Positions 16,087-42,816 are shown, counted from the stretch's first letter. The stretch is DNA of 58,541 nt from Deltaproteobacteria bacterium (GCA_002687015.1 NYZB01000276.1:1-58541); one strand, 5' to 3'. Translations and numbers: made by a program. The notes: generated from the sequence alone by a model not told the origin.

Positions 16087-16103
16087 CACGCGAGAAGAGG
16101 ATC

Positions 16104-16974: not shown

Positions 16975-18603
16975 TTGAACCCGCGCAGCCGGCCCGGCGA
17001 CCTCGCATGGCTGGGCCTGGTCGTGTTGGGAGCTCTCGCGCTCTTCTCGTTGGACTGGCGGGGCGGCCTCTACGGCGGCGTGGCCGAGGTGGGCGCCATG
17101 CGCGTGCTTGCTGGCGACCTGCCCTACCGGGACTTCTGGACGATCTATGCGCCCGGGCAGTTCTATCTGCTCGCGGGGCTCTTCGCGCTCTTCGGCTTGC
17201 AGTGGCTCGTCAGCCCGATCGCAGCCAGCCTGCTGCTGGCCGGAGCCAGCGCCGCGCTCTTCTGGGCCGTGCGGCGCGCGGGCGGAACCAGGGGCTCGGC
17301 GCTCGCGGGCGCCCTGGTGCTGGTCGTGGCGATCGCAGCCACGCCCTACCACCGGAGCTGTGGCAGCTATCCGCCGGCCCTGCTGCTCGGCATCCTGGCC
17401 TGGGGCCTCGTCGCGGGGCAGACACGCGGCAAGGGCGCCGTTGCGGCCGGCCTGGCCCTGGGCGCAGCCGCCCTGTTCAAGCACGACGTGGCCGCCTACT
17501 CCGCGCTGGGTGTCGCCCTCTACCAGCTGGGCCGGGGCCACCAGGACACCGGCTCCTGGCCGCGCGCCCTTCGCTGCGTTGCCACGACCGCCGCAGCCGC
17601 CCTGGCCGTCTTCGCGCCGCCCATGGTCGCCCTGGCACTCTCCACGGGCCCCGATCTCTGGCAGGACCTCGTGCGCTTCCCGCTCGGGGACTTCGCGAGC
17701 TCGCGGCCGGAGCAGCTGCCCCTCTGGCCGACGACGACCTTCGACCCCGAAGCGACCCGGCGCGCGGCCGCGCTGGCCGCCGGCAACAGCCTGACCTTCT
17801 GGCTCCCCTGGGTCGCGCAGCTCCTCGCCCTGGCTGTGGCGCTGCGCGACCGGCGGTTGCGCCCCTGGGCCCTTGCCCTGTTCGCGACCTTCCTGCTGCA
17901 CCAGCTCGCCGCGAGGGTGCAGATCAACACCCACGTCGTCTCGTGGAGCGCCATGGCCGCCCTGGCCCTCGCACCGGCCTGGCCTCGGATCCGGGAGGAG
18001 CGGAGCCTCCGGCTCGCCACCCTGGGCACGGCGGCCGCCCTGATCGCCGCCCACGGCGTGGCTCCGCTGGTCCGCCATGGCGTCGAGACGCCCCGGCACA
18101 CCGCGGACGCGCCGCTCCCGACCGCGAGGGGCATGCGAGTCCTGCCGAGTGACGTGCCGGCCCTGCTGAGGCTGGCGGAGCTGGTGGAGCAGAACCTCCC
18201 GGAGGGGGGTCGGCTCTACGCCGGAGAGCGGCGCCACGACGCGCTGCTCACGAGCCCCATGCGGCTCTACTTCCTGCTCGGGCGCCTGCCGGCCGTCCGC
18301 TACCACGAGCTGCACCCCGCCGTCGCCGACACCGAGCCCATTCAGGCGGAGATGATCGCCGACCTCGAGCGGCACGAGGTGTCGCTGGTGATCCTGCGCC
18401 GCAGCTTTCCCGACGATCATCTGGACCGCTGGCGGGAAGACCTGCGCAGCCGCGTCCCGTCCGCCGGCTCCACCCTGCTCGACGAGACCCTGCGAGAGCG
18501 CTTCGGCCGCCTGGAGCAGGTCGGCGGCTACGAGGTGCTGCGCCGCCGCTCTCGGAGCCACCCGTCCGGAGGGGACAAAGAGAAAGGGCGGCCACCGAGG
18601 TGA
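16975..18603 (+). CDS. Integral membrane GT-C-like glycosyltransferase (ArnT/PMT/DUF2029-like), function uncertain
   Basis: Multi-TM protein with GDLPYRDFWTIYAPGQFY near the N-terminus and a soluble C-terminal domain. The start was chosen at TTG 16975, before the first TM helix. The stop TGA 18601-18603 lies inside the hairpin of the convergent terminator. Confidence 0.55.
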   Translation: MNPRSRPGDLAWLGLVVLGALALFSLDWRGGLYGGVAEVGAMRVLAGDLPYRDFWTIYAPGQFYLLAGLFALFGLQWLVSPIAASLLLAGASAALFWAVRRAGGTRGSALAGALVLVVAIAATPYHRSCGSYPPALLLGILAWGLVAGQTRGKGAVAAGLALGAAALFKHDVAAYSALGVALYQLGRGHQDTGSWPRALRCVATTAAAALAVFAPPMVALALSTGPDLWQDLVRFPLGDFASSRPEQLPLWPTTTFDPEATRRAAALAAGNSLTFWLPWVAQLLALAVALRDRRLRPWALALFATFLLHQLAARVQINTHVVSWSAMAALALAPAWPRIREERSLRLATLGTAAALIAAHGVAPLVRHGVETPRHTADAPLPTARGMRVLPSDVPALLRLAELVEQNLPEGGRLYAGERRHDALLTSPMRLYFLLGRLPAVRYHELHPAVADTEPIQAEMIADLERHEVSLVILRRSFPDDHLDRWREDLRSRVPSAGSTLLDETLRERFGRLEQVGGYEVLRRRSRSHPSGGDKEKGRPPR

Positions 18604-18610
18604 CCGCCCT
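18575..18610 (-). terminator. Rho-independent terminator of PEP-CTERM gene copy A
   Basis: On the minus strand: GGGCGGTCAC-CTCG-GTGGCCGCCC hairpin (one G-U pair) followed by TTTCTCTTTGT. Conserved with 38401..38436. Confidence 0.6.
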
Positions 18611-18638
18611 TTCGAGGACGTTCAGCTAGCGAAGGAGC

Positions 18639-19355
18639 CTAGCTGCGGCGGCGACCCACCGTCACCAGGCCCAGGGCGCCGGCGCCGAGGAGCAGCAGCG
18701 TGCCCGGCTCCGGAACGCCGTTGTAGCGCAGGCGCAGGATCGTCGGGGACGAGGTCGTGCTCTGCAGGCCGAAGCTCGGCGCGGAGGTCACGAGCTTGTT
18801 GGCGACGACCAGCTGGATCGTGCCACCACCACCGGCGGTCAGGTTGAACGAACCGGTCGTGGTCACGTTCGGCAGCGCATTGCCCAGGCTGGTGAGGCCA
18901 CCGGCCTTCGCAACACCCGTGGTCCACTTCTGGTTGGTCAAGGTCAGGTTGATGCCATAGCCACCTGCCGTGACGGTGCCGGCCGTGCCCGTGGCCACCG
19001 GGATCGCGATGGCGCAGAACCCGAACAGGTACGCGCAGACATCTCCGGTCTGGATGCCGCCGTTGACCGCGCCGCCGCTCGTCACGCTGACCGCACCGTG
19101 ACCGCCCAGCTTGATCGTGATCGTGCTAACCGGGCTGGTGGTCGGGGGGAGGATGGTCGTGGTGCCGGCAAAGGCCGTACCGCCACCCCAGCTCCCCGCG
19201 TTGGCCGTGGAAGCGCCGTTCGCCTGCGCGATGGTCGTGATGGTGACACCGCCGATGACCGGCGTGGTCGACTCGGTCTCGACCTCGTACAGCGTGCCCG
19301 CATTGGCGCCGACGGCGAGCAACAGGGCAGCGAGAATGATGAACAACTTGTGCAT
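18639..19355 (-). CDS. PEP-CTERM sorting-domain secreted protein, Thr/Gly-rich, copy A (238 aa)
   Basis: ATG 19355. Signal peptide MHKLFIILAALLLAVGANA. C-terminal VPEPGTLLLLGAGALGLVTVGRRRS. Paralog of 37659..38372. Confidence 0.85.
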   Translation of the reverse strand: MHKLFIILAALLLAVGANAGTLYEVETESTTPVIGGVTITTIAQANGASTANAGSWGGGTAFAGTTTILPPTTSPVSTITIKLGGHGAVSVTSGGAVNGGIQTGDVCAYLFGFCAIAIPVATGTAGTVTAGGYGINLTLTNQKWTTGVAKAGGLTSLGNALPNVTTTGSFNLTAGGGGTIQLVVANKLVTSAPSFGLQSTTSSPTILRLRYNGVPEPGTLLLLGAGALGLVTVGRRRS

Positions 19356-19405
19356 TGTTGGAGTTCCTTGAACCTTCCTGTCCCCGGGGGAGCACCCTGC
19401 CCCCG

Positions 19406-19527
19406 CTCGAGACCTGGAGTGAATTCCCATCCCGCGCCCTCTTTCGAGGAGGATGAGTCCAGTGAATGAGTGGGAGCTGGGCCCCGAATGTGTCGGGGAA
19501 TCTCGAGGAATCTGGAGTCAATTCCCC
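19406..19527 (-). promoter_or_regulatory. Two about 23-26-nt direct repeats upstream of PEP-CTERM copy A (candidate regulator sites)
   Basis: Plus strand CTCGAGACCTGGAGTGAATTCCC (19406-19428) and CTCGAGGAATCTGGAGTCAATTCCCC (19502-19527). On the gene strand each contains GGGAATT(C/G)ACTCCAG, a core related to the GGGAAAT arms upstream of copy B. Confidence 0.3.
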
Positions 19528-19597
19528 TCGGGTGACCCAAAATGGGCTGGGAAGGCCCATGGAGAGCCAAGACCCGACGATCCCCCTGGGGGAATCG

Positions 19598-21244
19598 TCA
19601 GTTCGAGGATCCGGCCGCGTCCCGAGAGCGGAGGCCGGCCTCGACCTCAGCCTGATGGGGGCCTCCCTTGGCCCTGGCCCGCTCCAGGAGCTCGATCACC
19701 TCGTCGGTATTCCCCAGGGCATTGTGCGCGCCCGCCATCAGGACCAGCTCGATCTGGAAGGGGTCCTCGGCCCTCGACAGCCGATCGAGGGTGGCCCGCG
19801 CCATCTCGTTCAGCGGGCGTTGGACCTCGCGGTAGCCCACCAGACCGGCGATCGCGGGGTCGTCCAGGAGCGTCGTGTAGTCCACGAAGCCCGCGGCCAG
19901 GAGCGCCTCGAGCTCGCGGCCCACCGCCGGGACGTTGCCGGTGCGAGCATCCCGTTTCGCGTAGTCGATGAGCGCGGGGACGCCCTTGGGGTAGTTGCGC
20001 GTGGACTCCTGGGAGAGGGCCCGGTTCGTCGCGACCACGGGCGCGCGTTGGTGGGCTCGATAGCCGAAGGAGAGCGCCACCGCGACGAGGAGGGCACCCG
20101 CCCAGACGGGATCCCCTGATGCCCTGGCACCTCGGGATGCGCGCCACGCCGAGAAGCGAAGCCAACCCTCTCGCGCAGCAAGGAGCCCGCCGCCCAGCAA
20201 CCCGATCAACGGGGCGTACAGGTAGCGGTCGGCCATCGGGAACAGGAAGGCGAAGACCTGGCTCACCGGGGCGTACGCCGCCACCGCGAGCAACCAGTAG
20301 ACCGCCTCCTCATCACGGCGCCGGAGCACGGCGATCCATCGCCAGCTGAGCACGGCGAGGAGCAGGAGGCCGCTCAACCACCACGGGTCCAGCCAGCTCC
20401 GGGGTGGCGTCGGCTGGTGGAAGGCGGAGACGCCGAGGCCACTGACCGCCATCCGCAGGTAGCGCGTGGCCAGAGCCACCATCCAGCGCGCCTGCTCCGC
20501 CGGACCCTCGACGGGGGAGATCCCGAGGGACCCCACCCGCTGGAAGGCCGACATCTCCGGGATTCCGACCAGGACCAGGACCGCGAGGAAGGCGAGCAGC
20601 CAGATCGGCCGGGGCGCTTCGACGACCTCGTCCCCTTGTCGGACCCAGCACAGGAGGGCGGCGACCGGCAGCACGAAGGCTGCGCTGATCTTCGTCAGGA
20701 GGGCCAGCGCGAAGAGCAGGCACGCGAGACCGGGGTGCCGAGCCAACAAGAGAATGGACGCCAGGGCCAGGGCGGTCGAGAGCAGGGTCTTGACCTGAAA
20801 GACCATGCCGACGGTCTCGACGTGGGCGGGATGCAGCAGGAACACGAGCCCGGCGGCGCCGGCCACGACGAGCGGCAGCCGCGACGAGCGCAGGAGCATG
20901 ACGACGAGCAGCCCGTTCAGGGCGTGCAGGATCACGTTGACCACGTGATAGCCCCAGGTCTCCAACCCGAAGACGTGGCGCTCGACGGCGTGGACCAGCA
21001 GATGGACGGGGGCGTAGTTCATCCCCCAGAGGATGCCGGGAGCGGTCGGGTCGAGAATGACGGCGATGTTCTCGGCGCCGAGCTCCTGGACGTAGGGGTT
21101 GTCGACGATGATGGCGACGTCGTCCGAGACGAACTCGCCGTCGAGCACCGGAGCGTAGACGGCGAAGCTCGAGACGAGCATCAGCGCGAGGAGCCCCAGC
21201 GCAGCGGGCCATCCGAATTCCCGGTCGGCCTGGCCCCCCGCCAC
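19598..21244 (-). CDS. TMTC/PMT-like GT-C membrane glycosyltransferase with C-terminal TPR-like domain, paralog 2
   Basis: Collinear with 13076..14704 (SDDVAIIVDNPYVQ, YAPVHLLVHAVERHVFG, WGYHVVNVILH). The start was set at GTG 21244, before the first TM helix, and is uncertain. The gene lies directly upstream of PEP-CTERM copy A on the same strand. Confidence 0.7.
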   Translation of the reverse strand: MAGGQADREFGWPAALGLLALMLVSSFAVYAPVLDGEFVSDDVAIIVDNPYVQELGAENIAVILDPTAPGILWGMNYAPVHLLVHAVERHVFGLETWGYHVVNVILHALNGLLVVMLLRSSRLPLVVAGAAGLVFLLHPAHVETVGMVFQVKTLLSTALALASILLLARHPGLACLLFALALLTKISAAFVLPVAALLCWVRQGDEVVEAPRPIWLLAFLAVLVLVGIPEMSAFQRVGSLGISPVEGPAEQARWMVALATRYLRMAVSGLGVSAFHQPTPPRSWLDPWWLSGLLLLAVLSWRWIAVLRRRDEEAVYWLLAVAAYAPVSQVFAFLFPMADRYLYAPLIGLLGGGLLAAREGWLRFSAWRASRGARASGDPVWAGALLVAVALSFGYRAHQRAPVVATNRALSQESTRNYPKGVPALIDYAKRDARTGNVPAVGRELEALLAAGFVDYTTLLDDPAIAGLVGYREVQRPLNEMARATLDRLSRAEDPFQIELVLMAGAHNALGNTDEVIELLERARAKGGPHQAEVEAGLRSRDAAGSSN

Positions 21245-21332
21245 TACGCGCGCACCACCATGGGCTCGAGGGTACGAAAAGCCCCAGGGCGTCGCGACAG
21301 AGTCGCTGGCTGCGCCGTGGAGGACGGGGGCC

Positions 21333-22775
21333 GTGCCGCTACCCTGGGAGCGGGTCCTTGCAAAGGTGCAGCCGAAGTCGGAAGAGCAAGAAGGCCGCTT
21401 GCCCGCCTTCCTGAGAAAGCCCGAGGGCGTCTTCCTTGCCCTGGCCGGGGTCTTCGGGCTCTTCTTCTGCTTCGCCACTCCCCCGCACGACCCCGCCGAC
21501 GAGGATCGCCACCACGGGGTCGCCTTCCTGCTCTCGGAGGCGCACTTCACGGTCGTCGGGGACGCCCCCGGCCACGAAGCCACGGTGCCGAGGAGCATCG
21601 TGAACCTCCACCCACGCGGGCACCACTACACGGACGAGCAGCTCCGCTCGGGGCGGCTGCCGGCGGACATCCCGCGGACCCGTCGCCACCGGCCCGAAGA
21701 CCTCCGTCGCCTCTACGCTCGCGAGCTCGCCCCCCACGACCGGGTCCCCGTCCGCTACGGCGCGGCCTACTCCCCCCTGGTCTACGCCGCCATTTCACCC
21801 GCTCTGGCACTCGGTCGCGCCGCGGGCCTGCCCGTGGTGGCCAGTCTCTGGCTGGCGCGGGTCGCGGGCCTGGCGTTGTGGCTCGCAGGCGTCGCGCTCG
21901 CCATCCGACGGGCGCCGGTCGGCAAGTGGGGCCTTGCGGCCGTCGCCCTGCTTCCGATGTCGGTCTTCCAGGCGGGCTCGATCTCGGGCGATCCCGTCTC
22001 CCAGGTGGTCCTCTTCCTCTTCTTCGCGGAGCTGCTGCGCGCCGCGCGGAGAGGGACGGATTGGGCCGGTCGCGAGGCGCTGCTCCTCGTCGGTCTCGCG
22101 GCCCTGATCGGCCTCGTCAAGCCCGGCTACGCGCCGATCACCCTCTCCGCAGTCGCGTTGCTCGTCGCCGAGCGTTCGGGTCGGCGAGCCGCCTGGATCG
22201 CGGCGATCGTGGCCGCGGCCCACCTCACGACCGTGGGCTGGGCAGCGCGGGTCCAGGCCGCGGTGCAGCCCACCCTCGCCGTCGGCGTGGACGCGGCGGA
22301 GCAGGCCCTCTTCATCGCGACCCACCCCCTCGAGTTCGCAGGCATCCTGCTGCGCACGAGCTGGATGTCCGTTCCCGCCTGGATCGAGGAGATGGTCGGG
22401 AACGTCGGACACCTCGACGTCGGCATCCCACCCGTCGCCACGGCCGTGGCCCTGCTGGCGGTGTTGGCCGCGAGCATGCTCGACGAGGCTCCGACGCCGC
22501 GGCCCTGGACGGGCTGGGCACTCCTGGGAGGCTTCTTCGCCGCGGGCATCGCGATCATGACGATCGCCTACATGGGATGGACGGCCGTCGGCATCCCGGT
22601 CATCCACGGCGTGCAGGGCCGCTACTTCATGCTCATGCTGCCCTTCGCACTCGTCGGCCTACCGCGTCTCCCGACCCGGTACGCGCCACCGGCACGCGCT
22701 GCCATCCCCTGGGCGCTCGCCACCGTCCTGGCCGTGACCGCAGTGGAGATGGTCGACCGGTACTACGAGTTCTGA
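21333..22775 (+). CDS. DUF2142-type polytopic membrane protein (putative glycan-assembly protein), intact paralog
   Basis: GTG 21333 with GGAGGA 8 nt upstream. PPHDPADEDRHH near the N-terminus, many TM helices, GVQGRYFMLMLPF near the C-terminus. Paralog of 42817..44258. Confidence 0.7.
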   Translation: MPLPWERVLAKVQPKSEEQEGRLPAFLRKPEGVFLALAGVFGLFFCFATPPHDPADEDRHHGVAFLLSEAHFTVVGDAPGHEATVPRSIVNLHPRGHHYTDEQLRSGRLPADIPRTRRHRPEDLRRLYARELAPHDRVPVRYGAAYSPLVYAAISPALALGRAAGLPVVASLWLARVAGLALWLAGVALAIRRAPVGKWGLAAVALLPMSVFQAGSISGDPVSQVVLFLFFAELLRAARRGTDWAGREALLLVGLAALIGLVKPGYAPITLSAVALLVAERSGRRAAWIAAIVAAAHLTTVGWAARVQAAVQPTLAVGVDAAEQALFIATHPLEFAGILLRTSWMSVPAWIEEMVGNVGHLDVGIPPVATAVALLAVLAASMLDEAPTPRPWTGWALLGGFFAAGIAIMTIAYMGWTAVGIPVIHGVQGRYFMLMLPFALVGLPRLPTRYAPPARAAIPWALATVLAVTAVEMVDRYYEF

Positions 22776-22781
22776 GGAGCT

Positions 22782-25262
22782 CTAGCCCTCGCCCTGGCTC
22801 AGCTCCTTGATCGCCGCCCGGGTCTCCTCGACCTCCGGGTACTCGACGGCGGCGGCCAGGGCCAGCTCGAAGGCCTCGACGGCTGCCTGGGGCCGGCCCA
22901 TCTCGCGCAGAGCCAGACCCAGGTGATGCTGGGCGACGGCCCAGGCGCGGGTCTGCTCCTGCGCCAGCTCGATGGCCTCTTCGAATTGGACCGCGGCGGC
23001 CTCGGGGATCTTCCGTTGCAGGTAGACGAAGCCCAGGGTGTCCGCCGCACCGGTCGAACGGGGGAGTGCCTGGCGAGCCTCCTGGGCCAGGCTCAAGGCG
23101 CGGTCCAGGTCTCCGCCGCTGACGGTCAGGTGATAGGCGAGATCGTTCTTGGCACCGGGCAGGTCGGAGCGTTCGGCCAGGGCCGCCTCCAGGAGCTCGA
23201 TGGCGCGACCGCGCTCGCCGCGGCTGGAGTGGAGACGCGCCAGCATGATCCGGCCGGAGGCATCGAGGGTCCCGGCCTCCTCCTGTTTCGTCAGACGCTC
23301 CATCACCTCGCTCTGGCGCCCGAGCCTGGTGAGCAGCTGCACCACCAGCTTCACGCTGCCCGGCTGGTCCGGCTCGAGCTCGAGCGATCGCTCGGCGTGG
23401 CTGAGTGCCTTCTCCTTGTCGCCGACCCTGACCAGCTGCTTGGCGAGAAGTCGATGGAGGATGCCCGAATCGGGCTGCTTCTCGACAGCCCGGACCAGCC
23501 GCTCGGTCGCCCGATCCGGCTTGCGGTCGCGCAGGTCGAGTGCGACGGCCATCCGGATCAGCCTCACTTCCCCCGGCTCTCGTTCGAGAGCGGCAGCGAG
23601 ACGCTTGCGAGCCAGCTCCGGTTGGTTCCCATACTCTTTTTGGGCGAAGAGCAGGACCGCATCCGCGGGCGGCTCGTCCAGGCGGAAGAAGCGCTCCAGC
23701 AGCTGCCTTGCGACCTGCTCCTGGCCGGCCCCGTAGGCCGCGCGAGTGGCCGGCAGCAGATCGCGTAGGGAGACCTGGCCGCGTTGACGCCGGAACACCC
23801 GTCGGAAGGTCACGAGGGCTCCCGCATGGTCGCCGAGCCGTGCCTGGAGCCTCGCCTTCTGCCGAAGGCAGCGCAGGTGGAACTTGCCCGTGGGCTGGAC
23901 CAGGGCCAGGGCCTGGTCGACGTGCCCCAGGGCGACTCGCATGCGGCCGAGCCGCGTCTCCACGGAGCTGAGCCTGAACAGGTCGGTTGGGTTCTCCTCG
24001 AGCTGGATCAGGGTCCGGTAGAGGTCGGCGGCGTCCGTTTCCCGACCCTCGGCCTCGGCGACCCGGGCCTGGGCTCGCAAGGCGTCGGGCGTATCGGCGA
24101 ACTCCGTCACCAGGCGCTCCGAAGTCACCTTCGCGGCAGGCAGATCGCCGTTCTGGATCTGCTGGGAGACGATCTCGCCCAGGATGCGCTCCGAACGGGA
24201 CGCCTTGGAGACCGACTCCTCGAGATGGGCGAGCGCCAGGTCCTGATGCCCTCGCGCCGCGAGGTCTCGGGAGTAGGCGATGTGGGCGGCGGGCAGCTCG
24301 GGCACCGTCTCGACCATGCGCGCGAGGACGGTCGACGGCTGGGCGTTCATCCCGTCGACCAGGGTCGCGAGGCGCTGCCACTGCCGTATGACCGTGGGCT
24401 CCAGCTCGAGGGATTGCTCGATCGCCCAGCGCTCGGTGGCGGTGTCCTTGACGCCCTGGCTGTAGCGCCGCGCCGCCGCGAGCGCCGACTGGAGCATCTC
24501 CTTGCGTTCCGCCCCCTTCCAGGCCTCGACTTTCCGGTAGGCCTCCTTGAAGGCCTCGGGGGCTTCGCTCCGGCGGGCCTCCCAGGATCCCAGCAGGCTC
24601 GCGCGCTCGATCGCGGCCCGGAGCGCATGCCGCGACTCACCCGCTTGCTCTGACGCGACGGCCTGCTCGAAGGAAGCGAGCGCGTTCTGCCAGGCAGCCT
24701 CTTCGGGCTCTTCCTTGCGCCGGATGGCCTCTCCGATCTGCGCCATGTACACGATTCCGAGCTGGAGCAGAGCCTCGGGATCGTCGTCGCCGATCTCGAC
24801 CGCCGTCAGCGCTTCGGTCAGCGCGCCATCCAGATCCTCCGACACGATGCCGGCCTGGGAGAGCATCACCCGTGCGGAGACGTTCGTGGGGTCCCGCTCG
24901 AGGATCTCAGCCAGGAGCTCCCGCGCCTCGTCGACTTCCGTCCCCAGGAGGAGCCGCGCTTCGCCGAGGGCGGCCGGCAGCATGGAGGGATCGAGTCGCC
25001 TCGCTTCCTGGTAGTAGAAGAGGGCATCCTCGATCGCCCGGGCCCGCATCATGAGCTCCGCGATCTCGAAGTTGACGGCGGCGTTGTTGGGGTCGATCTG
25101 CAGGGCACTCCGCAGCTCGAGGAGCGCCTCCTGGAGGTCGCCGGCCACCCTGAGCTCTTGGGCCGCAGCCAGGTGCTCGGCGAGCTTCTCTTCGTCGGAG
25201 CCGCAGCCGGCCGCAAGGCCCACGGCCAGGAGTAGAACACAACCGACTCGCCACGCCCTCAT
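22782..25262 (-). CDS. Large TPR-repeat lipoprotein (PrsT-like?), 826 aa
   Basis: ATG 25262 in an ATGA overlap with the upstream TPR gene stop, GGGAGG RBS. Lipobox LAAGCGS. TPR-like helical repeats throughout. Confidence 0.8.
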   Translation of the reverse strand: MRAWRVGCVLLLAVGLAAGCGSDEEKLAEHLAAAQELRVAGDLQEALLELRSALQIDPNNAAVNFEIAELMMRARAIEDALFYYQEARRLDPSMLPAALGEARLLLGTEVDEARELLAEILERDPTNVSARVMLSQAGIVSEDLDGALTEALTAVEIGDDDPEALLQLGIVYMAQIGEAIRRKEEPEEAAWQNALASFEQAVASEQAGESRHALRAAIERASLLGSWEARRSEAPEAFKEAYRKVEAWKGAERKEMLQSALAAARRYSQGVKDTATERWAIEQSLELEPTVIRQWQRLATLVDGMNAQPSTVLARMVETVPELPAAHIAYSRDLAARGHQDLALAHLEESVSKASRSERILGEIVSQQIQNGDLPAAKVTSERLVTEFADTPDALRAQARVAEAEGRETDAADLYRTLIQLEENPTDLFRLSSVETRLGRMRVALGHVDQALALVQPTGKFHLRCLRQKARLQARLGDHAGALVTFRRVFRRQRGQVSLRDLLPATRAAYGAGQEQVARQLLERFFRLDEPPADAVLLFAQKEYGNQPELARKRLAAALEREPGEVRLIRMAVALDLRDRKPDRATERLVRAVEKQPDSGILHRLLAKQLVRVGDKEKALSHAERSLELEPDQPGSVKLVVQLLTRLGRQSEVMERLTKQEEAGTLDASGRIMLARLHSSRGERGRAIELLEAALAERSDLPGAKNDLAYHLTVSGGDLDRALSLAQEARQALPRSTGAADTLGFVYLQRKIPEAAAVQFEEAIELAQEQTRAWAVAQHHLGLALREMGRPQAAVEAFELALAAAVEYPEVEETRAAIKELSQGEG

Positions 25263-27992: not shown

Positions 27993-28025
27993 CCCCGGTT
28001 CTCTCAATCCTGGCTGGAGAAATCC

Positions 28026-29423
28026 TTGTCTGGTCGCATCTATGATTCTCCCCGCTTTTTCTATGCCTTGGCGGCGCTCCTGCTGATTGCTGGTGCCCTG
28101 AGCCAGCTCCGGATCTCGATTCCGACCCGGCCCATCGGCAGTGTGGACGAGATCGCTGCGCTGAAGGATCGGGAGGACCTCAACGTCATCTTCGTCTTGA
28201 TCGACACCCTGCGCGCCGATCGGCTCGGATCCTACGGCTACGAGCGCGACACCACTCCCTTGATCGATGAGCTCGGCCGGAGCGGCATCCGCTTCGCCGA
28301 GACCCATGCCCAGTCCAGCTGGACGAAGACCTCGATGGCCTCGCTCTGGACGGGCCTCTTCCCGCCGCGGACGGGCGTCCTCCGCTACGACGACGCCGTC
28401 CCGCCGAAGGCGACGATGCCGGCGGAGATCTTCAGGGAGGCGGGCTACGCCACGGCCGGGATCTTCCGGAACGGCTGGGTGGGCGCCAACTTCGGCTTCA
28501 ACCAGGGCTTCGAGACCTACGTGAAGCCCCAGAAGCGGGAGGTCAAGGAGGGCTTCGAGAAGCACGTCCCCGGCGCCGCCACCGTGCCGGGCACGGATTC
28601 GGAAGTGACCCTGGCCGCCCTCGAGTTCGTGCGGAACAACGCGCACCAGAAGTTCCTTCTCTACCTGCACTACATGGACGCGCACCAGTACGCCTACGAG
28701 GCGGAGTTCGCCCAGCTCGACTACGGATCGACGATCTCGGACAGCTACGACCGGGCGATACGCTGGACCGACGCCAACATCGATCAGCTGGTCGCCGAGC
28801 TCGAAGACCTGGACCTGATGAAGAAGACGATCCTCGTGATCGCCTCCGACCACGGTGAGGCCTTCCGGGAGCACGGCATCGAGGGGCACGCCCAGGACCT
28901 GCACATCGAGGCGCTCCGGGTCCCGCTGATCATCAACCTGCCCTTCCGGATCGATGGAGGGCTGACCGTGGAGCCAGTGACCCGCAACGTCGACATCTGG
29001 CCCACGATCCTCGACATGGTCGGACTGCCGCCTCTTCCGAGCACCGACGGCATCTCCCTGATCCCGATGATCCAGGCCGCAGCCGAAGGCTCCAGCACGG
29101 AGGAGCTCGAGTCCTTCGCATTCCTCGACCTGGGCTGGGGGCAGCGCAACTCGGACTTCCAGCCCTTGGCCGCGCTGCAGCACGAGGGGCGAAAGGTCAT
29201 GGTCGAGCTGGCGGAGCCCGAAGAGACCTTGATGGCCTTCGACGTGGATGCCGATCCGGGTGAGCGGAAGAACCTCAAGGGCGGCAGGCCCGACTGGATC
29301 GAGCCTCTGCAGGCGAAGATGGCAGAGCACTCGGAGGCCGAAACGGCCATCGGCAGCCTCCAGATCGAGCTCGACGAGATGTACCGGGCCCAGCTCGAGG
29401 CTCTTGGCTACGTCGTGAAGTAG
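28026..29423 (+). CDS. Sulfatase-like alkaline-phosphatase-superfamily enzyme (Thr at the nucleophile position), membrane anchored
   Basis: TTG 28026 with GGAGA 5 nt upstream. N-terminal TM FFYALAALLLIAGAL. VLIDTLRADRLGSYGY metal-site motif, SDHGE, and HAQSSWTKTSMASLWTG in place of the C/S-x-P-x-R sulfatase signature. Start uncertain. Confidence 0.75.
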   Translation: MSGRIYDSPRFFYALAALLLIAGALSQLRISIPTRPIGSVDEIAALKDREDLNVIFVLIDTLRADRLGSYGYERDTTPLIDELGRSGIRFAETHAQSSWTKTSMASLWTGLFPPRTGVLRYDDAVPPKATMPAEIFREAGYATAGIFRNGWVGANFGFNQGFETYVKPQKREVKEGFEKHVPGAATVPGTDSEVTLAALEFVRNNAHQKFLLYLHYMDAHQYAYEAEFAQLDYGSTISDSYDRAIRWTDANIDQLVAELEDLDLMKKTILVIASDHGEAFREHGIEGHAQDLHIEALRVPLIINLPFRIDGGLTVEPVTRNVDIWPTILDMVGLPPLPSTDGISLIPMIQAAAEGSSTEELESFAFLDLGWGQRNSDFQPLAALQHEGRKVMVELAEPEETLMAFDVDADPGERKNLKGGRPDWIEPLQAKMAEHSEAETAIGSLQIELDEMYRAQLEALGYVVK

Positions 29424-29424
29424 G

Positions 29425-31977: not shown

Positions 31978-34799
31978 TTCGCGGCATCGCACTCCTCCTG
32001 ACCTTCTTCACGGGCTCGAGCGGCCTCGTCTACGAGGTCGCCTGGCAGAAGGTGCTGGCCGCGCTGCTCGGCTCGCACAGCGAAGCGACGGCGGCCGTCC
32101 TGGCGATCTACCTGGGCGGACTCGCTGCGGGCTACGCGCTCTTCGGCCGGGTCACGGCGCGCTCGGGGCGCCTCTCGCTCTTGCGCCTCTACGGAATCGT
32201 CGAGTTCGGCATCGGTGTCTGGGCCCTCCTCTTCCCGTGGTTCTTCACGGCGGCGCAGGGGCTCTCGGTGGCCATGGCGCCTGCCAACGAAGCCCTGGGC
32301 TTCGGGTTCGACGTCCTCCTCGCGACCTTCCTGATCGGCCCGCCCACGGTGTTGATGGGCGGCACCATCCCCGTCCTGACCCAGGCGCTCGCCCGGGACA
32401 CGAGCGACGCGACCCGGGTCCACGCCTGGATCTACTCCACCAACACGGCGGGGGCCTTCCTCGGCGCGCTGGCGGGTGGGTTCTTCCTGGTGCCGTGGCT
32501 GGGTCTGGACGGAGTGGTCCGGACGATGGCCATCGTGAACCTGGGCGCTGGGGTCGTCTTCGTCCTGTCCGGCGGCGCCGGCCGTGCGGCCGCCCCCGCG
32601 GCGGAAACGCCGGGGAGCCGGCAGCCGGAGAGCTTCGCCGGCTACGCCGTGGTCGCGGTTCTGGCCGGGTTCTCGATGATGACGGTGCAGACGGTGCTCA
32701 ACCGGATCGGCGCGCTCTCGCTCGGCGCCTCCCACTTCACCTTCTCCATGGTCGTGGCGGTCTTCGTCCTCTGCATTGCGCTCGGTAGCTTCGCGGTCTC
32801 TGCACTCCGGACGATCCCGGCATGGCTCATCGTCGGCCTGCAGTGGCTGTTGGCGGCCATCATGGTGGGCCTCTACTTCGTCCTGCCGGATACGACCTAT
32901 TGGGCCCATGTCATCCGCAGCCTCTTCCGCGACGAAGCGGCGGCCTTCTTCCCCTACTACGGCGCGGTCTTCACGGCGATGCTCGCCGTGCTCTTCGTCC
33001 CCATCGGGATCTCCGGCGCCCTGCTGCCCCTTCTCTTCCACCACCTGCGCGATCGGATGGGCGAGCTCGGCAGCGTCGCCGGCAAGCTCTACAGCTGGAA
33101 CACCGTGGGCTCCTTGCTGGGCGCGCTGCTCGGTGGCTACGCGCTGCTCTTCTTCATCGACCTCGACCAGGTCTACGCGCTCGCCGTGGGCGGGCTGTTC
33201 TTCGTGGCGCTCGGCGTCACGATCCTGGTGGGACGCATGCCGCTCGCTCTGGGAGCGATCGGCGCCGTCGTGGTCCTCTTCCTCGGCACCCAGCTTCCGG
33301 AGTGGGACTCGAATCGTCTGGCCGCCGGGACCTTCCGCCAACGCCACCCCACCCCGAATTCCTACAGCGGGCCCAAGGCCTTCTACCGACAGGGTCGACT
33401 CAACCACGTGTTCCACACCGACGACCCGATCGCCTCGGTCACGGTCGTCCGGAACACCCAGAAGGGCAAGCCCAACCACGCCATCATGACGAACGGCAAG
33501 GCCGACGGCAGCCTTGGCCCCGACTACCCGACCATGGCGATCACGGGCCTGCTCCCGGCTCTCTTTACGGACGACCCGTCCCGCTCCTTCGTGATCGGCT
33601 GGGGCACGGGAGTGACGATCGGCGAGCTCGCCGCCCTCGAAGGCACCCGTGAGGTCCTCGTCGCCGAGATCTCGCCGGGCGTCCTCGAGGCTGCACCGCT
33701 CTTCGACTACGGAAACCTGGCGGCCTCGAAGAACCCGAAGGTCGAGATCCTTCGAAGTGATGCGTACCGCGCGCTGCTCCGGAGCGAAGGCCAGTTCGGA
33801 GTCATTGCCTCGGAGCCGAGCAACCCCTGGGTCGCGGGGGTGGAGATGCTCTTCAGCCGGGACTTCCTCGAAGCGGCGCGCTCCCGGCTGACGCCGGGCG
33901 GCATCTACGCCCAGTGGTTCCACCTCTACGAGACGGATCGCGAGACGGTCGAGATGGTGCTCCGCACCTACGCCGAGGTCTTCGATTCCGTCTCGATCTG
34001 GTACACCTTCGGCCCCGATCTGATCCTGCTCGGGCACAACGCGCCGGATGACTCGCTCGACCTCGAGCGCCTTCGGAAGGGGTTCGAGCAACGCGACTTC
34101 CGCGCGGGCTTCGCGCGGGCCCGCATCGGGAGCTTTCCGACCTTCCTCTCCCACGAGCTCATACCGCTGGGCACGCCGGAGGCCGCAGGGCTGAAGGGGC
34201 CGATCCACACGTTGCGGCACCCGCGGCTGAGCCACCTGGCCGCGAGTGCCTTCTTCCACAGCAGGCGGGCAGAGGTCCCGAGCTTGCCGCAGCTCCCGAG
34301 CGCTCGGGTCGGTGCCCGGAACTCGCTCCTCCGCAGGGCCGGGCCCCTGGACGAGGCGACGCTCGGCGAGATCGTCCGCCACACCTGCGAGATGCAGCGA
34401 CTCCGGGAGTGCGCCACGTGGCTCGCGCGAATGATCGCCTCGTTCCCCGACAGCGAGCAGACCGCAGAGCTGAGGCGGAGGCGAGAGGCCCGTCTCACCG
34501 AGTTCCTGAAGCTCGAGCCGGGAGCCCTCGACTCCCTCGCGGGCTTCTACGAGGGGAAGGTCCCGAGCCTGAGCGGGAGCGGATTTTCGGATGCGCTCCA
34601 GGCCACGAAGCTCTTCGAGCGCTTCTACCTGCACGCTGCGCCCTTCCCGCGGCGGGTGCTGTCGGGCGCGTGGCGCAACTGCCGCGAGGTGGGCGTCTCG
34701 CTCCGCTGCTACGAAGCGCGCCGCAAGGCCGGCGAGCGACTCGGCGACCTGACGGCCCAGGTCGATCTCGGATCGACCCCTGGAGCACCGCTGCGGTAG
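31974..34799 (+). CDS. Fused polytopic-membrane (MFS-like) / spermidine-synthase-like protein, paralog 2
   Basis: GTG 31974 in a GTGA overlap with the upstream stop. LLLTFFTGSSGLVYEVAW opening parallel to paralog 1. VIGWGTGVTIGEL...GVIASEPSNPW spermidine-synthase-like core. Extra C-terminal helical domain. Confidence 0.75.
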   Translation: MIRGIALLLTFFTGSSGLVYEVAWQKVLAALLGSHSEATAAVLAIYLGGLAAGYALFGRVTARSGRLSLLRLYGIVEFGIGVWALLFPWFFTAAQGLSVAMAPANEALGFGFDVLLATFLIGPPTVLMGGTIPVLTQALARDTSDATRVHAWIYSTNTAGAFLGALAGGFFLVPWLGLDGVVRTMAIVNLGAGVVFVLSGGAGRAAAPAAETPGSRQPESFAGYAVVAVLAGFSMMTVQTVLNRIGALSLGASHFTFSMVVAVFVLCIALGSFAVSALRTIPAWLIVGLQWLLAAIMVGLYFVLPDTTYWAHVIRSLFRDEAAAFFPYYGAVFTAMLAVLFVPIGISGALLPLLFHHLRDRMGELGSVAGKLYSWNTVGSLLGALLGGYALLFFIDLDQVYALAVGGLFFVALGVTILVGRMPLALGAIGAVVVLFLGTQLPEWDSNRLAAGTFRQRHPTPNSYSGPKAFYRQGRLNHVFHTDDPIASVTVVRNTQKGKPNHAIMTNGKADGSLGPDYPTMAITGLLPALFTDDPSRSFVIGWGTGVTIGELAALEGTREVLVAEISPGVLEAAPLFDYGNLAASKNPKVEILRSDAYRALLRSEGQFGVIASEPSNPWVAGVEMLFSRDFLEAARSRLTPGGIYAQWFHLYETDRETVEMVLRTYAEVFDSVSIWYTFGPDLILLGHNAPDDSLDLERLRKGFEQRDFRAGFARARIGSFPTFLSHELIPLGTPEAAGLKGPIHTLRHPRLSHLAASAFFHSRRAEVPSLPQLPSARVGARNSLLRRAGPLDEATLGEIVRHTCEMQRLRECATWLARMIASFPDSEQTAELRRRREARLTEFLKLEPGALDSLAGFYEGKVPSLSGSGFSDALQATKLFERFYLHAAPFPRRVLSGAWRNCREVGVSLRCYEARRKAGERLGDLTAQVDLGSTPGAPLR

Positions 34800-34832
34800 G
34801 ACCAGATGCCACCGGCCATGGCGGGCGCGCCT

Positions 34833-37307
34833 CTACCTTTCGGACAGGCGGGCGAAGCGCTTCTCCGCTTCTTCGCGGAGATGACTCGTGCCGTCGCCTG
34901 CGGGTGCGGCCCGGGCCTCCGCCAGGGCCTGCTCGGCTTCGAGCTCCCGGCCGAGGCCGGCGTACGCCTCCGCACGCCGGTAGAGCAGGTCATAGCGACC
35001 GGGCGCTCGGACGAGACCCCTCTCGGCGGTCTCCAGCGCAGCGGCGAAAGCCCCCTGGGCGACCTGCACGGACGCCAGGGTCTCGAGCGCGCCCGCGGTG
35101 CCGTCCGTGACCTCCACGACCTCGCGGGCCAGGGACTCCGCGCGATCCAATCGACGCCCGAGCCGAGAAAGCAGCCAGGCCAGGTGGTTCTTGGCGAGGA
35201 CGTTGTCGGGGTTGAAGGCAAGAGCCCGCTCCGCGGCCACGGCGGCCTCCCCCTGCCGGCCGAGTCGATCGAGAACTTCGGCACTCGCGAGGAAGATCCG
35301 ATCCGTCGTGGCGCCCGCACGCTCGGCGGCGCTGAGACGCATGCGCGCCATGTCCAGCCTTCCGGCCACGAGCTCGGCGCGGGCGAGGCGAAGCGCCGCG
35401 GCCTCGCGACTCAGGTGCCCCGGCGGGAGCTCGGCCAGGCGGCGGCGGGCACTCATCAAGTCCCCGTCTTCCGTGTCCAGGGCCGCGAGGCGCCAGAGGC
35501 TGGTCGAGTTGGGTTGTTCGGCGGCCGCCGCCTGCTCGTAGCTGCGTCGGGCCTCCTCGCGGTCGCCCACCAGCTCCAACGCCTCGCCCAGCAGCACGAA
35601 GCCGCTGCCTCGGCCCGGATTCTTCTTCGCCGCGGCGCGAAAGGTCGCAATGGCCTCCTGCGTTCGACCCTCGGCCAGGGCCAGGCGGCCCTCGAGGAGA
35701 AAGACATCCTCCGGGTGGGAGCCGCGCAGCCGTTCGAGGTGGGCGCGTGCCGTCCCGGTGTCGCCGGCCATGAGCGCCGCGTCCACGCGCATCCCCTCGA
35801 TGTTGGAGCCGCTCGGACCGAAGGGCTTGAGCGCCTCCAGGACCTCGCGGCCGCGACCCTGGGAGAGAAGGACGTTCGCCCTGTGCAGGGCCTGGAGCAG
35901 GAACACCTTGTCCTTGGGGTCTGGGCCGCCGACCACGCCCAGGGGCGGCCCGCCCCCCTCGGCCTCGGCGACGTCGATGTAGCCGAGGGCCTCGAGGCGC
36001 GCGCGCTCGGCGTCCCCGACCTCCAGATTCGGTGCGGGCGGTCGGCCGGCGGCGATACGCGCTTCGACGACGGCGTCCAGTGCGCGCACTCGCTCGGGTT
36101 GCTCGTCTGCCAGGTTCCGCAGCTCACCCGGATCGGACTGGAGGTCGTAGAGCTCGGGGCGCGTCACTCGGATGTACTTCCACTCTGCGGTTCGAACTCC
36201 GAGCTGGGGGCTCCAGCCCAGATCGAGCTGGCTGGCCAGGGTCTCGACCCAGGCCACCCGGTCGGAGGGGAGCGCCCGACCCTGGAGGGCCGGCCACAGG
36301 CTGGTGCCGTCGCTCGCGGGCATCGGCGGAAGCCCGAACCAGTCGAGCACCGTGGGTGCGAGATCCGCGAGCGCGACCTGATCCTCGACCACCTCGTCGG
36401 CGGGAATGCCCGGTCCGGACAGGATGAGCGGCACGCGCTGGGTCGGGTCGTAGATCGTAAAGGAATGGGTCCACTCGCCGTGGTCGCCGCGAGCCTCGCC
36501 GTGGTCGCTGGTCACGACGACCGCGGTGGCTCCGTCAGGGAAGCGCTCGTCGATCGCCGCCAGGAGTCGAGCCAGCTCCGCATCGGCGAAGGCGATCTCC
36601 CCGTCGTAGAGATCGGACTCGAAGCGGCTGGCCCAGGGCTCCGGGGGGGTCAGATCCTGGTGCGGGTCATAGAGGTGGATCCATGAAAAGAAGCGCTCGG
36701 GCGCCCCGTCGAGCCAGCGGATGGCGGAATCGACAACCTGGTTGGCGGGACGACTGGCCACGACCATGGCCGCCCGGCCTGCGCGGGCCATGCCGAGCTC
36801 GTCGTCGTAGACGTCGAAGGAGCGGGCGAGGCCGTGGCGCTCGTCCAGCACCGCCGCAGCCACGAAGGCCCCCGTCCCGAAGCCCGCGGCGCGAAAGCGA
36901 TCGGTCAAGGTGGGAATGTCCGCTTCCAGCCTGAAGTCGCCGTTGTCGCGAACGCCGTGGGCCGGCGGATCGAGACCGGTGAGCAGGGTGGCGTGCGAGG
37001 GAAGGGTCAGCGGAGCGGGCGAGATCGCGTGCTGGAAGCGCGTCCCCTCCCTCGCAAGACGATCCAGGGTCGGGGTCGAGCCGCCGCCCCACCCGTAGCA
37101 ACCCACCCGATCGGCGCGGAGCGTGTCGATGGTGACGAGCAGGAGGCGCTTCGGCGACTCCGCCCGGGTTGGCTGCGCAGACTCCGAGGGTTGGATGGGG
37201 GCGTTGGCCGGCTCGGCTGGGGGAGGCGCCGGTACAGGGCTCTCTCCGCATGCGAAGGCGAGCAGGGAGAGAGTCACAAGGACGGCTCGGGCGCGCATGG
37301 GCCGCAC
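34833..37307 (-). CDS. Sulfatase-like (Thr-nucleophile type) enzyme fused to a C-terminal TPR domain, lipoprotein
   Basis: Lipobox LLAFACG. LLLVTIDTLRADRVGCYGW, and SPAPLTLPSHATLLTG instead of C/S-x-P-x-R. TSDHGE. About 400 aa of TPR-like repeats at the C-terminus. Confidence 0.8.
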   Translation of the reverse strand: MRPMRARAVLVTLSLLAFACGESPVPAPPPAEPANAPIQPSESAQPTRAESPKRLLLVTIDTLRADRVGCYGWGGGSTPTLDRLAREGTRFQHAISPAPLTLPSHATLLTGLDPPAHGVRDNGDFRLEADIPTLTDRFRAAGFGTGAFVAAAVLDERHGLARSFDVYDDELGMARAGRAAMVVASRPANQVVDSAIRWLDGAPERFFSWIHLYDPHQDLTPPEPWASRFESDLYDGEIAFADAELARLLAAIDERFPDGATAVVVTSDHGEARGDHGEWTHSFTIYDPTQRVPLILSGPGIPADEVVEDQVALADLAPTVLDWFGLPPMPASDGTSLWPALQGRALPSDRVAWVETLASQLDLGWSPQLGVRTAEWKYIRVTRPELYDLQSDPGELRNLADEQPERVRALDAVVEARIAAGRPPAPNLEVGDAERARLEALGYIDVAEAEGGGPPLGVVGGPDPKDKVFLLQALHRANVLLSQGRGREVLEALKPFGPSGSNIEGMRVDAALMAGDTGTARAHLERLRGSHPEDVFLLEGRLALAEGRTQEAIATFRAAAKKNPGRGSGFVLLGEALELVGDREEARRSYEQAAAAEQPNSTSLWRLAALDTEDGDLMSARRRLAELPPGHLSREAAALRLARAELVAGRLDMARMRLSAAERAGATTDRIFLASAEVLDRLGRQGEAAVAAERALAFNPDNVLAKNHLAWLLSRLGRRLDRAESLAREVVEVTDGTAGALETLASVQVAQGAFAAALETAERGLVRAPGRYDLLYRRAEAYAGLGRELEAEQALAEARAAPAGDGTSHLREEAEKRFARLSER

Positions 37308-37407
37308 CGTAGCTGAATGGCCATCCCCTCCCAGGCCCGGCCCGCCGGCGAGGGCCTATCCCCCCGGGACGTTGATTGAACGGAAGGAACGCCCTTTCCG
37401 TTCTGTA

Positions 37408-37431
37408 GGGAAATCCCTTTCCGAATTTCCC
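37408..37431 (+). promoter_or_regulatory. Inverted repeat, candidate enhancer-binding-protein site (UAS) about 100-120 bp upstream of the sigma-54 promoter
   Basis: GGGAAAT-N10-ATTTCCC (37408-37414 / 37425-37431), embedded in a relatively AT-rich stretch with further GGAAGG/CCTTTCC motifs (37382-37399). Confidence 0.35.
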
Positions 37432-37529
37432 GTCGCGTGCCCTCGATCGGGACCGGTGGAGGCTCGGGATTTCGTTGTTTCTCGTGGTTTTTCAACGAGT
37501 TATGTGTTTTCCGCTCCAGCGGGCCCGCT

Positions 37530-37545
37530 TGGCACTCGCATTGCA
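37530..37545 (+). promoter_or_regulatory. Sigma-54 (RpoN) -24/-12 promoter for PEP-CTERM gene copy B
   Basis: TGGCAC-TCGCA-TTGCA matches the TGGCAC-N5-TTGCW consensus with correct GG/GC spacing. It lies about 115 nt upstream of ATG 37659. Confidence 0.65.
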
Positions 37546-37658
37546 GATGTCCGGGGTAACTTCGCGACGACCGGTGGCAAGGTGCATACCCGGGTACGCG
37601 AACGAGCAGGTAGGGTTGGCCCCCGCGGCCTCCCGTCGAAACAAGGAAAACCATTCAC

Positions 37659-38372
37659 ATGCGCAAGTTGTTCATCCTCGCGGCGGCCATGCTGTTGGCC
37701 GTCGGCGCTAATGCGGCACCGCTCACCGAGGTCGAGACCGAGTCGACCACGCCGGTCATCGGCGGGGTCACCATCACGACCGTCGCGCAGAGCAACGGAA
37801 CGGCCTCGGCCGGCGCCGGTTCCTGGGGCGGTGGTACGGCCTTTGCCGGCACCCAGACCATCCTCCCCCCGACCACCAGCCCGGTTAGCACGATCACGAT
37901 CAAGCTGGGCGGTCACGGTGCGGTCAGCGTGACGGCCCTCGGCGCGGTCGTCGGCGGCGTCCAGACCGGCTCCGTCTGTGCGTATCTGTTCGGCTTCTGC
38001 GCCATCGCCATCCCGGTGGCCACGGGCACGACCGGCACGATCACGGCTGGCGGGTACGGCATCTTCATCACGGTCGAGAACCAGAAGTGGACCACGGGTG
38101 TTGCGAAGGCCGGTGGCCTGACCAGTCTCGGTCAGGCGCTGCCGAACGTGACCACGACCGGTTCGTTCAACATCAACGCCAGTGGTGCGGGCACGATCCA
38201 GCTGGTCGTGGCCAACACGCTCACCACCAGTGGGGCGGCCTACGGCCTGCAGAGCACGACCTCGAGCCCGACGATCCTACGCCTGCGCTTCAGCGTGCCG
38301 GAGCCCGGCACCCTGCTGCTCCTCGGCGCTGGTGCCCTCGGCCTCGTGCTGGTGGGTCGCCGCCGCAGCTAA
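37659..38372 (+). CDS. PEP-CTERM sorting-domain secreted protein, Thr/Gly-rich, copy B (237 aa)
   Basis: Signal peptide MRKLFILAAAMLLAVGANA. C-terminal VPEPGTLLLLGAGALGLVLVGRRRS. About 40 differences from copy A over about 238 positions by manual alignment. Confidence 0.85.
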   Translation: MRKLFILAAAMLLAVGANAAPLTEVETESTTPVIGGVTITTVAQSNGTASAGAGSWGGGTAFAGTQTILPPTTSPVSTITIKLGGHGAVSVTALGAVVGGVQTGSVCAYLFGFCAIAIPVATGTTGTITAGGYGIFITVENQKWTTGVAKAGGLTSLGQALPNVTTTGSFNINASGAGTIQLVVANTLTTSGAAYGLQSTTSSPTILRLRFSVPEPGTLLLLGAGALGLVLVGRRRS

Positions 38373-38400
38373 GCTCGTTAGTTAGCTGAACGTCCTTGAA

Positions 38401-38436
38401 GGGGCGGTCACCTCGGTGGCCGCCCCTTCTCTTTGT
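38401..38436 (+). terminator. Rho-independent terminator of PEP-CTERM gene copy B
   Basis: GGGGCGGTCAC-CTCG-GTGGCCGCCCC hairpin followed by TTCTCTTTGT. Confidence 0.65.
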
Positions 38437-42815: not shown

Positions 42816-42816
42816 G

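Follow-up and report, generated by a model that had tools for sequence, protein, structure and literature searches.

In a 58,541-nucleotide (nt) contig deposited for a Deltaproteobacteria bacterium (GCA_002687015.1, NYZB01000276.1:1-58541; hereafter the window, an NCBI contig of 70.2% G+C), two paralogous PEP-CTERM genes lie in inverted orientation at the outer edges of an 18.3-kb cassette. We consider it likely that these two genes, copy A and copy B, are a lineage-specific pair descended from the single PEP-CTERM cargo gene of an envelope cluster conserved in Myxococcota, produced by a duplication that has become fixed and modified since by gene conversion. The pair had first been described by a model that read the sequence by itself (the sequence-only reading), and several of its proposals are taken up below. 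Throughout, gene calls were taken from public contigs identical to the window, and domains from Pfam and NCBIfam scans.

An inverted pair of PEP-CTERM genes

A repeat search of the window recovered inverted arms at 18719-19355 and 37659-38295 (637 nt, 84% identical) and a second pair at 18575-18718 and 38293-38436 (144 nt, 89%), the two segments being offset by one 3-nt indel. Sensitive self-blastn extended the match to 18575-19370 against 38436-37642, at 84.6% over 798 columns, and returned no further repeat of comparable similarity in the window. When both copies are aligned, similarity begins about 17 nt before the ATG, at CAAGGAA, and stops at the terminator tail TCTCTTTGT, the flanking DNA of A and B being unrelated. 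The two units, the only PEP-CTERM genes of the window, are as follows.

18575-19370 (-): copy A unit, with ribosome-binding site (RBS), coding sequence (CDS) at 18639-19355, and 3' untranslated region (UTR) with terminator; PF07589 at 25.8 bits
37642-38436 (+): copy B unit, with RBS, CDS at 37659-38372, and terminator hairpin at 38398-38429

The encoded proteins, of 238 amino acids (aa) for A and 237 aa for B, are 84% identical. Codon by codon, the copies differ by 39 substituted codons, a further 39 with synonymous differences only, and one indel, for a total of 110 nt differences. Repeat search, alignment and blastn therefore all bear out the proposal of inverted paralogous units that run from RBS to T-run and end abruptly, and the codon count matches the earlier manual estimate of about 40 differences in about 238 positions. 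Both genes are transcribed outward, and their upstream regions, which accordingly lie inside the bracketed segment, do differ, as had been claimed. The ends of copy A, the 3' one exactly at the terminator T-run and the 5' one within the 5' UTR, resemble those of a 5'-truncated copy of an mRNA.

Probable gene conversion between the copies

The two coding sequences share an identical block of exactly 79 nt (19080-19158 on the minus strand and 37856-37934; CDS nt 198-276, codons 67-92), and both the length and the coordinates reported for this block amid diverged flanks proved correct. With the 110 differences placed at random, the longest identical run averages 31 nt and a run of 79 nt was never reached in 20,000 trials; this uniform-substitution null was dropped as inadequate, since the differences are clustered and the block codes for the best-conserved peptide of the family, and outgroup-conditioned tests were used instead. 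The clustering itself, in which multi-nucleotide groups of differences separate identical runs of 79, 41, 39 and 36 nt, suggests patchy exchange. Six outgroups were used: P0004, the copy-B ortholog of a related species (L009, a long-read contig at about 24% DNA divergence and 1.4x coverage), four paralogs from L008, and P0005.

With the six outgroups taken in turn, the longest run of A=B over outgroup-variable sites was 16-24, against a permutation mean of 7-8 (P <= 0.0014), and third codon positions alone gave a run of 14-17, from CDS nt 177 to about 300 (P <= 0.00085). Synonymous divergence (dS, Nei-Gojobori) between A and B is 0.44 in columns 1-180, 0.00 in columns 181-330, and 0.31 and 0.31 in the rest of the alignment, while dS to P0004 in the zero-dS zone is 0.71. 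The zone that lacks any synonymous difference covers codons 59-103 (45 codons, approximately 19047-19181). Differences unique to the outgroup and those between A and B do not keep a constant ratio along the gene (chi-square P = 7e-7 for heterogeneity), and over the first 180 nt the distances among A, B and P0004 are roughly equal. Overall nucleotide identity is 85% between A and B and 74% to P0004 (L009 being seen on the B side only), with an A-B dS of 0.27 and a ratio of non-synonymous to synonymous divergence (dN/dS) of 0.5. These results support a localised, more recent common ancestry of the central tract, for which gene conversion is the simplest reading. The suspicion of conversion raised by the sequence-only reading thus finds agreement in both the outgroup-conditioned runs tests and the regional dS, and the substitution profile, for which that reading had proposed a recombination test, is not uniform (0.00 in the tract against 0.31-0.44 elsewhere).

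The block might instead owe its identity to purifying selection and codon bias acting on the most conserved peptide of the family, with no conversion at all. That peptide (ILPPTTSPVSTITIKLG.H) is indeed conserved across P0003-P0008, and a G+C content of about 0.85 at third codon positions (GC3) restricts the synonymous options. The codons of the block nevertheless differ from those of the six outgroups at 14-17 third positions, yet are the same in A and B, and the tract dS to P0004, set against its absence between the copies, is hard to obtain in this way; we regard an origin by selection and codon bias as very improbable.

In six of the seven other copy-B contigs one codon inside the block reads AGT (Ser), where copy B of the window and all A copies read GGT (Gly), and perfect identity over 79 nt is therefore limited to the haplotype of the window. 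The outgroups have Asn at this codon. A separate patch was seen in copy B of L011 and L012, where three substitutions within 8 nt at codons 191-194 (approximately 38229-38240) change AGT GGG GCG GCC to AGC GGG CCG TCC, and GAA to GPS in the protein. We considered this patch as an A-to-B micro-conversion and rejected it, as just two of the three changes match A and an intervening difference is unconverted. Literature searches found no paper that combines PEP-CTERM with gene conversion.

Control regions and the likely direction of duplication

The promoter-like elements identified in the window all lie upstream of copy B.

37530-37544 (+): sigma-54 -24/-12 promoter motif TGGCACTCGCATTGC, 115 nt before the copy-B ATG
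37386-37399 and 37409-37422 (+): two GGAA-N6-TTCC palindromes, the only two matches in the window

The pattern TGGCAC-N5-TTGC has a single perfect match in the 58.5-kb window, which is the one upstream of B. The GGAA-N6-TTCC pair lies about 110-145 nt upstream of it and is a likely enhancer for a sigma-54 activator. The sigma-54 motif is found in 11 related loci (L009, L018, L020, L022, L025, L026, L028, L029, L030, L034 and L037), in most of them just upstream of a PEP-CTERM gene and usually as the sole such match per 20-kb locus; in eight loci (L009, L018, L020, L022, L025, L026, L028 and L030), similar paired GGAA..TTCC-like sites, several with one mismatch, also precede the PEP-CTERM gene.

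In the published description (Haft et al. 2006, PMC1569441), PEP-CTERM genes typically form operons of one gene, preceded by a long upstream region with a sigma-54 motif, a pattern that copy B follows and copy A does not. Copy B reads as a one-gene transcription unit with a 360-nt upstream region and its own terminator. No sigma-54 motif was found for copy A in 19356-19597 at up to two mismatches, since no more than 17 nt upstream of the ATG belong to the duplicated unit. In L009, P0004 holds the same position between the same neighbours as copy B. From the promoter motif, the enhancer-like sites and the position in L009 we infer that A, which lacks a promoter, was copied from B, the parental gene.

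Copy A has nevertheless been maintained. After polarisation with outgroups, the A branch has 20 synonymous and 24 non-synonymous changes and the B branch 18 and 30, where neutrality would give a ratio of about 1 to 2.5; both copies are under purifying selection, and A is not decaying. The obvious candidate for its transcription is read-through from u548, a gene that lies 242 nt upstream on the same strand.

A terminator shared with the convergent gene

On its downstream side copy A faces a convergent gene, u542b, with which it shares a terminator-like structure.

16975-18603 (+): u542b, 542-aa membrane protein, GT-C/PMT_2-like (gene call mapped from L001); outside-left neighbour, convergent with A
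18582-18613 (no strand): terminator-like hairpin of A, 14 pairs and then a T-run, shared with the 3' end of u542b

The corresponding terminator-like hairpin of copy B is at 38398-38429 (+). The label GT-C that the convergent gene had been given agrees with the domain evidence: u542b has no direct Pfam match and its homologs carry PF13231 (PMT_2). Its TGA, at 18601-18603, lies within the copy-A hairpin, just where the sequence-only reading had put it. Homology with the u542b ortholog of L043 ends at ..YEVLR, and the C-terminal tail DKEKGRPPR* falls in the repeat; u542b is 13 codons longer than in L043, its last nine codons and stop being encoded by the copy-A terminator, an arrangement seen in neither L043 nor L044.

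Orientation of the cassette

Inverted repeats do bracket the segment, each 0.8 kb long and just 85% identical, and it had been proposed that recombination between them would invert the cassette, create chimeric proteins and swap promoters, as a possible mechanism of surface variation. In such a switch, crossovers between the inverted copies would recurrently flip the 18.3-kb cassette without a dedicated recombinase; the 5' third under sigma-54 control would be joined now to one and now to the other of two C-terminal two-thirds, and the surface would vary as a result. The geometry fits, with both 5' ends in the interior: a crossover in the 79-nt block would join the B promoter and codons 1-66 to codons 93-238 of A. 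Conversion shows, furthermore, that the copies pair, and 79 nt exceeds the minimal homology for RecA-dependent exchange in Escherichia coli.

We surveyed orientation in 10 contigs from 7 metagenome assemblies (L001-L007, L011-L013), each spanning a copy; these are consensus assemblies, in which a minority arrangement would not be visible. All ten match the window colinearly, at 99.8-100%, across a copy together with its two flanks, and at least five haplotypes of copy B are represented among them; two scaffolds, of 105 and 124 kb, include A as well as B. No flipped junction occurs in the ten contigs or the window. The comparison with related genomes that had been suggested as a check for orientation polymorphism gives the same picture, as L009 is colinear from the sulfatase-family gene Sulf507 through P0004 to the luciferase-like gene and has the same orientation, on the B side, at about 24% divergence. 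Chimeric A/B proteins are likewise absent from the 90%-identity clusters of A and B in approximately 15 billion sequences, and no cluster intermediate between A and B appears among the matches. Divergence of 15%, with no other identical run longer than 41 nt, should moreover strongly suppress crossovers, and no invertase was found in the open reading frames (ORFs) scanned. With one orientation in ten contigs and L009 and no recombinase, the proposed inversion and its chimeric products are not borne out, and we judge a recurrent switch to be highly unlikely.

The encoded proteins

Both copies score above the PF07589 cut-off of 20.7 bits (25.8 and 28.8 bits), and TIGR02595 gives 23.5 against a cut-off of 16. 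Both end in VPEPGTLLLLGAGALGLV(T/L)VGRRRS*, that is, a PEP motif, a hydrophobic helix (residues 217-237 in the AlphaFold2 model of copy A) and a basic cluster, and an N-terminal signal peptide, MHKLFIILAALLLAVGANA/G, can be read in the sequence by inspection. The copy-A model, built from an 84-sequence alignment, reaches a predicted local distance difference test (pLDDT) score of 86.7 and a predicted template-modelling (pTM) score of 0.80. It consists of an N-terminal helix (residues 2-12), an all-beta body formed by beta strands alone through residue 212, with no internal transmembrane segment, and the C-terminal helix. When Foldseek was run with this model on the PDB, nothing significant was found (best E 0.015, template-modelling score 0.23), and the beta domain is confidently predicted to be an all-beta fold for which no solved relative is found. 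The proteins would then be Sec-exported, all-beta and anchored by their C-terminal PEP-CTERM segment, with a presumed role as cargo.

Gene content and conservation of the cluster

Between and beside the two copies lie the following genes.

19598-21244 (-): u548, 548-aa PMT/TPR-like membrane protein; inside neighbour, upstream of A
21333-22775 (+): DUF2142 membrane protein (PF09913, E 5e-45)
22782-25262 (-): TPR826, TPR protein of 826 aa, PrsT-like, under the family cut-off
25259-27697 (-): TPR812, TPR protein of 812 aa, PrsT-like, under the family cut-off
27900-29423 (+): Sulf507, sulfatase-family protein of 507 aa (domain scan, gene call)
29440-31977 (+): fused MFS/spermidine-synthase-like membrane protein, 845 aa (NF037959, 85 bits against a cut-off of 40)
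31974-34799 (+): Spd941, fused MFS/spermidine-synthase-like membrane protein, 941 aa (NF037959, 92 bits)
34833-37298 (-): SulfTPR, sulfatase-TPR fusion of 821 aa, divergent from copy B
38520-39428 (-): luciferase-like monooxygenase, outside-right neighbour of B

This content makes "envelope-biogenesis cassette", the name under which the segment had been described, a fair label. Relatives of u548 are named protein O-mannosyl-transferase or TPR protein in some sources, and the two TPR proteins score 184 and 138 bits with the PrsT model against its cut-off of 312. Among the approximately 45 window ORFs scanned there is no exosortase, PrsK or PrsR, and no recombinase, integrase or transposase domain, a few small ORFs lying outside the scan; no tRNA or Rfam family was found in the window.

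Searches with tblastn recovered a recurring set of genes in Myxococcota loci, comprising TPR826 (-), TPR812 (-), a PEP-CTERM gene (+), Sulf507 (+), Spd941, SulfTPR and a u548-like gene (L017, L018, L020, L023, L025, L026, L028 and L030, approximately 1-20 kb each). The PEP-CTERM gene of these relatives encodes 247-294 aa and is placed inside the cluster, directly before Sulf507; the corresponding slot of the window (27698-27899) is empty, and the PEP-CTERM genes stand at the outer ends. The cluster is thus conserved across Myxococcota, normally with one internal PEP-CTERM gene, and appears to be undescribed, literature searches having found no paper that brings together PEP-CTERM, spermidine synthase and sulfatase. 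Tandem or inverted arrays of the PEP-CTERM family occur in L008, L017, L021 and L024. The array in L008 (572-4585), from another marine population, holds four tandem family paralogs and one further PEP-CTERM gene that is much more distant; compared in pairs, the paralogs have dN/dS values of 0.6-0.85, which suggests relaxed or diversifying selection.

At the site of the window, the cluster and its two copies are present or absent as a unit, a 19.9-kb block consisting of A, cassette and B (18545-38519). Two related organisms lack it. In L043 (2396-2445) the u542b ortholog (76% aa identity) is directly convergent with the luciferase-like ortholog (88%), with 22 nt between the stops, and in L044 (11194-11221), which retains the ThuA-MFS-ThuA-SDR (short-chain dehydrogenase) synteny of the window's left flank, the two (56% and 83%) are convergent with a 4-nt overlap. 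The block ends coincide with the repeat ends within approximately 30 and 84 nt, show no convincing target-site duplication, and enclose DNA with a G+C content equal to that of the flanks; the indel may reflect either gain or loss of the block.

One might read the block as a mobile island that moves as a unit, in the manner of a composite transposon whose terminal inverted repeats are the two PEP-CTERM genes. This would account for the agreement between its ends and the presence/absence boundary, and the block does sit exactly between the u542b and luciferase-like genes that adjoin in L043 and L044. Against this stand the lack of a transposase or integrase in the ORFs scanned, of a target-site duplication, of a tRNA and of a G+C shift; the ends, moreover, are functional genes under purifying selection, relatives carry their PEP-CTERM gene inside the cluster, and loss of the block explains the indel equally well. 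We accordingly give little credence to a mobile island.

A second route concerns history only and is compatible with our account of the present-day arrangement: a tandem pair, B then A, beside u542b, split by one ancient inversion from B to u548. Arrays of the family are common, the five-gene array in L008 serving as a model, and the second gene of a tandem would be expected to have no sigma-54 promoter and to lie beside u542b; other rearrangement scars also lie nearby, such as the Amidohydro_3 fragment at 14875-15402 described below. The inversion breakpoint would, however, need to hit the exact junction of the two units, there is neither a terminator piece upstream of A nor extra homology, and L009 already shows the present B-side arrangement. 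A split tandem is, in our view, an unlikely origin for the pair, for which we continue to favour the inverted insertion of a copy of B.

Other duplications and rearrangements in the window

The region around the cassette holds a long record of local duplication. Older paralog pairs include two ThuA genes (9117-9968 and 11359-12204, 60% aa identity), two DUF2142 genes (21333-22775 and 42816-44258, 48% aa), an inverted short-chain dehydrogenase pair (12212-12988 and 49223-50005, 69% nt) and the PMT-like pair u542a and u548 (13076-14704 and 19598-21244, 40% aa). An Amidohydro_3 N-terminal fragment of 175 aa at 14875-15402 (+) overlaps an ECH ORF at 15348-16964, and L009 and L044 have full-length Amidohydro_3 homologs, encoded on the opposite strand to the right of the luciferase-like gene; the fragment looks like something that an older rearrangement left behind. 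We also tested for a larger inverted duplication and rejected it, as the Amidohydro_3 and ECH genes flanking the two sides are related no more closely than distant paralogs (27-37% aa).

A second locus, in which a u548-like gene (65% aa) is followed by that of a 479-aa sulfatase-family protein, was found in the same metagenome samples (L046-L053) and probably represents a further copy, either in this genome or in one that occurs alongside it. The best long-contig match to u548, P0173, was tried as a route to the copy-A side and rejected, since it belongs to a second u548-like and sulfatase locus of the same samples and is not an ortholog. Near the left end, a ThiF-family protein is encoded close to an AAA ATPase with a proteasomal-ATPase OB domain (Mpa/ARC-like; 2-1093 and 2469-4595), which is unexpected for a Myxococcota-like genome.

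Source of the sequence

Exact-protein look-ups place copies A and B both on marine (Tara Oceans) metagenome contigs, and in a scan of GTDB genomes the distant relatives of the PEP-CTERM family (30-46% identity) all fall in Myxococcota-type metagenome-assembled genomes; the source bacterium is marine and Myxococcota-like. Two scans of JGI metagenomes, one using the family alignment stripped of its tail and one using 40 nt of the identical block, gave zero matches, so that the organism is missing from that collection.

Discussion

The history that we propose for the pair begins with B as the parental gene, under sigma-54 and GGAA-N6-TTCC control and with its own terminator. A 796-bp copy, running from RBS to terminator, would have landed inverted and promoterless at the other edge of the cluster as copy A, where its terminator may also close the convergent GT-C-like gene. 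Both copies would then have been kept by selection while they diverged, still exchanging short patches through RecA-type gene conversion. Their products are presumably processed by an exosortase encoded elsewhere, and the GT-C-like, sulfatase-family, TPR and MFS/spermidine-synthase-like proteins of the cluster presumably modify or handle PEP-CTERM proteins. The inverted bracket would be a fixed by-product of the duplication and not a programmed switch.

Several points weigh against this account. The copy-A side is seen in no related species, such that the direction and age of the duplication are deduced from the promoter asymmetry and the B side of L009 only. The block encodes the most conserved peptide of the family and its conservation is partly selective; sequencing errors inflate the distances of L009, at its 1.4x coverage, though the five other outgroups agree. 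The G of the window's GGT codon may be ancestral or may have come from A by a very recent conversion, the population data being ambiguous. None of the window ORFs scanned encodes an exosortase, and copy A is only presumed to be transcribed. Finally, consensus assemblies cannot reveal a minority orientation, and a low-frequency, RecA-driven flip-flop, with a crossover in the conversion tract inverting the 18-kb cluster, retains a slim chance of being correct; if so, a minority of cells would display a different surface-protein variant.

The closest analogues of the arrangement would seem to be concerted inverted duplicates of the tufA/tufB type together with surface-protein paralog arrays. The tuf genes share about 99% identity, are essential and lie hundreds of kilobases from each other; the copies described here, in contrast, are accessory genes with 85% identity at a distance of 18 kb, under different regulation and with homogenisation confined to patches. 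What they share with tufA and tufB of Salmonella is the presence of inverted copies on one chromosome that exchange short tracts by homologous recombination, and between which a crossover would invert the interval (PMC5485169, PMC6735719). Tandem lipoprotein clusters and other surface-protein paralog arrays show the same local duplication, patchy identity and raised dN/dS (0.5 here) (PMC2568036), whereas our two copies bracket the gene cluster to which they belong. Invertons and shufflons, for instance the hsdS invertons, also have bracketing inverted repeats within the coding sequence of variable surface or specificity proteins (PMC7672463); here, by comparison, no invertase was found, the repeats are whole, diverged genes of 0.8 kb, and one orientation is seen.

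The proteins themselves have the composition known from the PEP-CTERM/exosortase (EpsH) system, namely a signal peptide, a low-complexity body rich in Thr, Gly and Ser, VPEPG, a transmembrane helix and RRRS, and they likewise form a paralogous family beside glycosyltransferase and TPR genes (PMC1569441). The sulfatase-family pair and the two fused MFS/spermidine-synthase-like partners, on the other hand, lie outside the described system.

The present evidence points to no new mechanism of variation. What the pair offers is a natural example of a duplicated surface-protein gene in which one copy has kept its ancestral sigma-54 and enhancer control and the other is promoterless. The conserved cluster, the GGAA-N6-TTCC and sigma-54 control region and the predicted all-beta fold were absent from the literature searched, and they provide handles for the study of PEP-CTERM cargo in uncultured marine Myxococcota.

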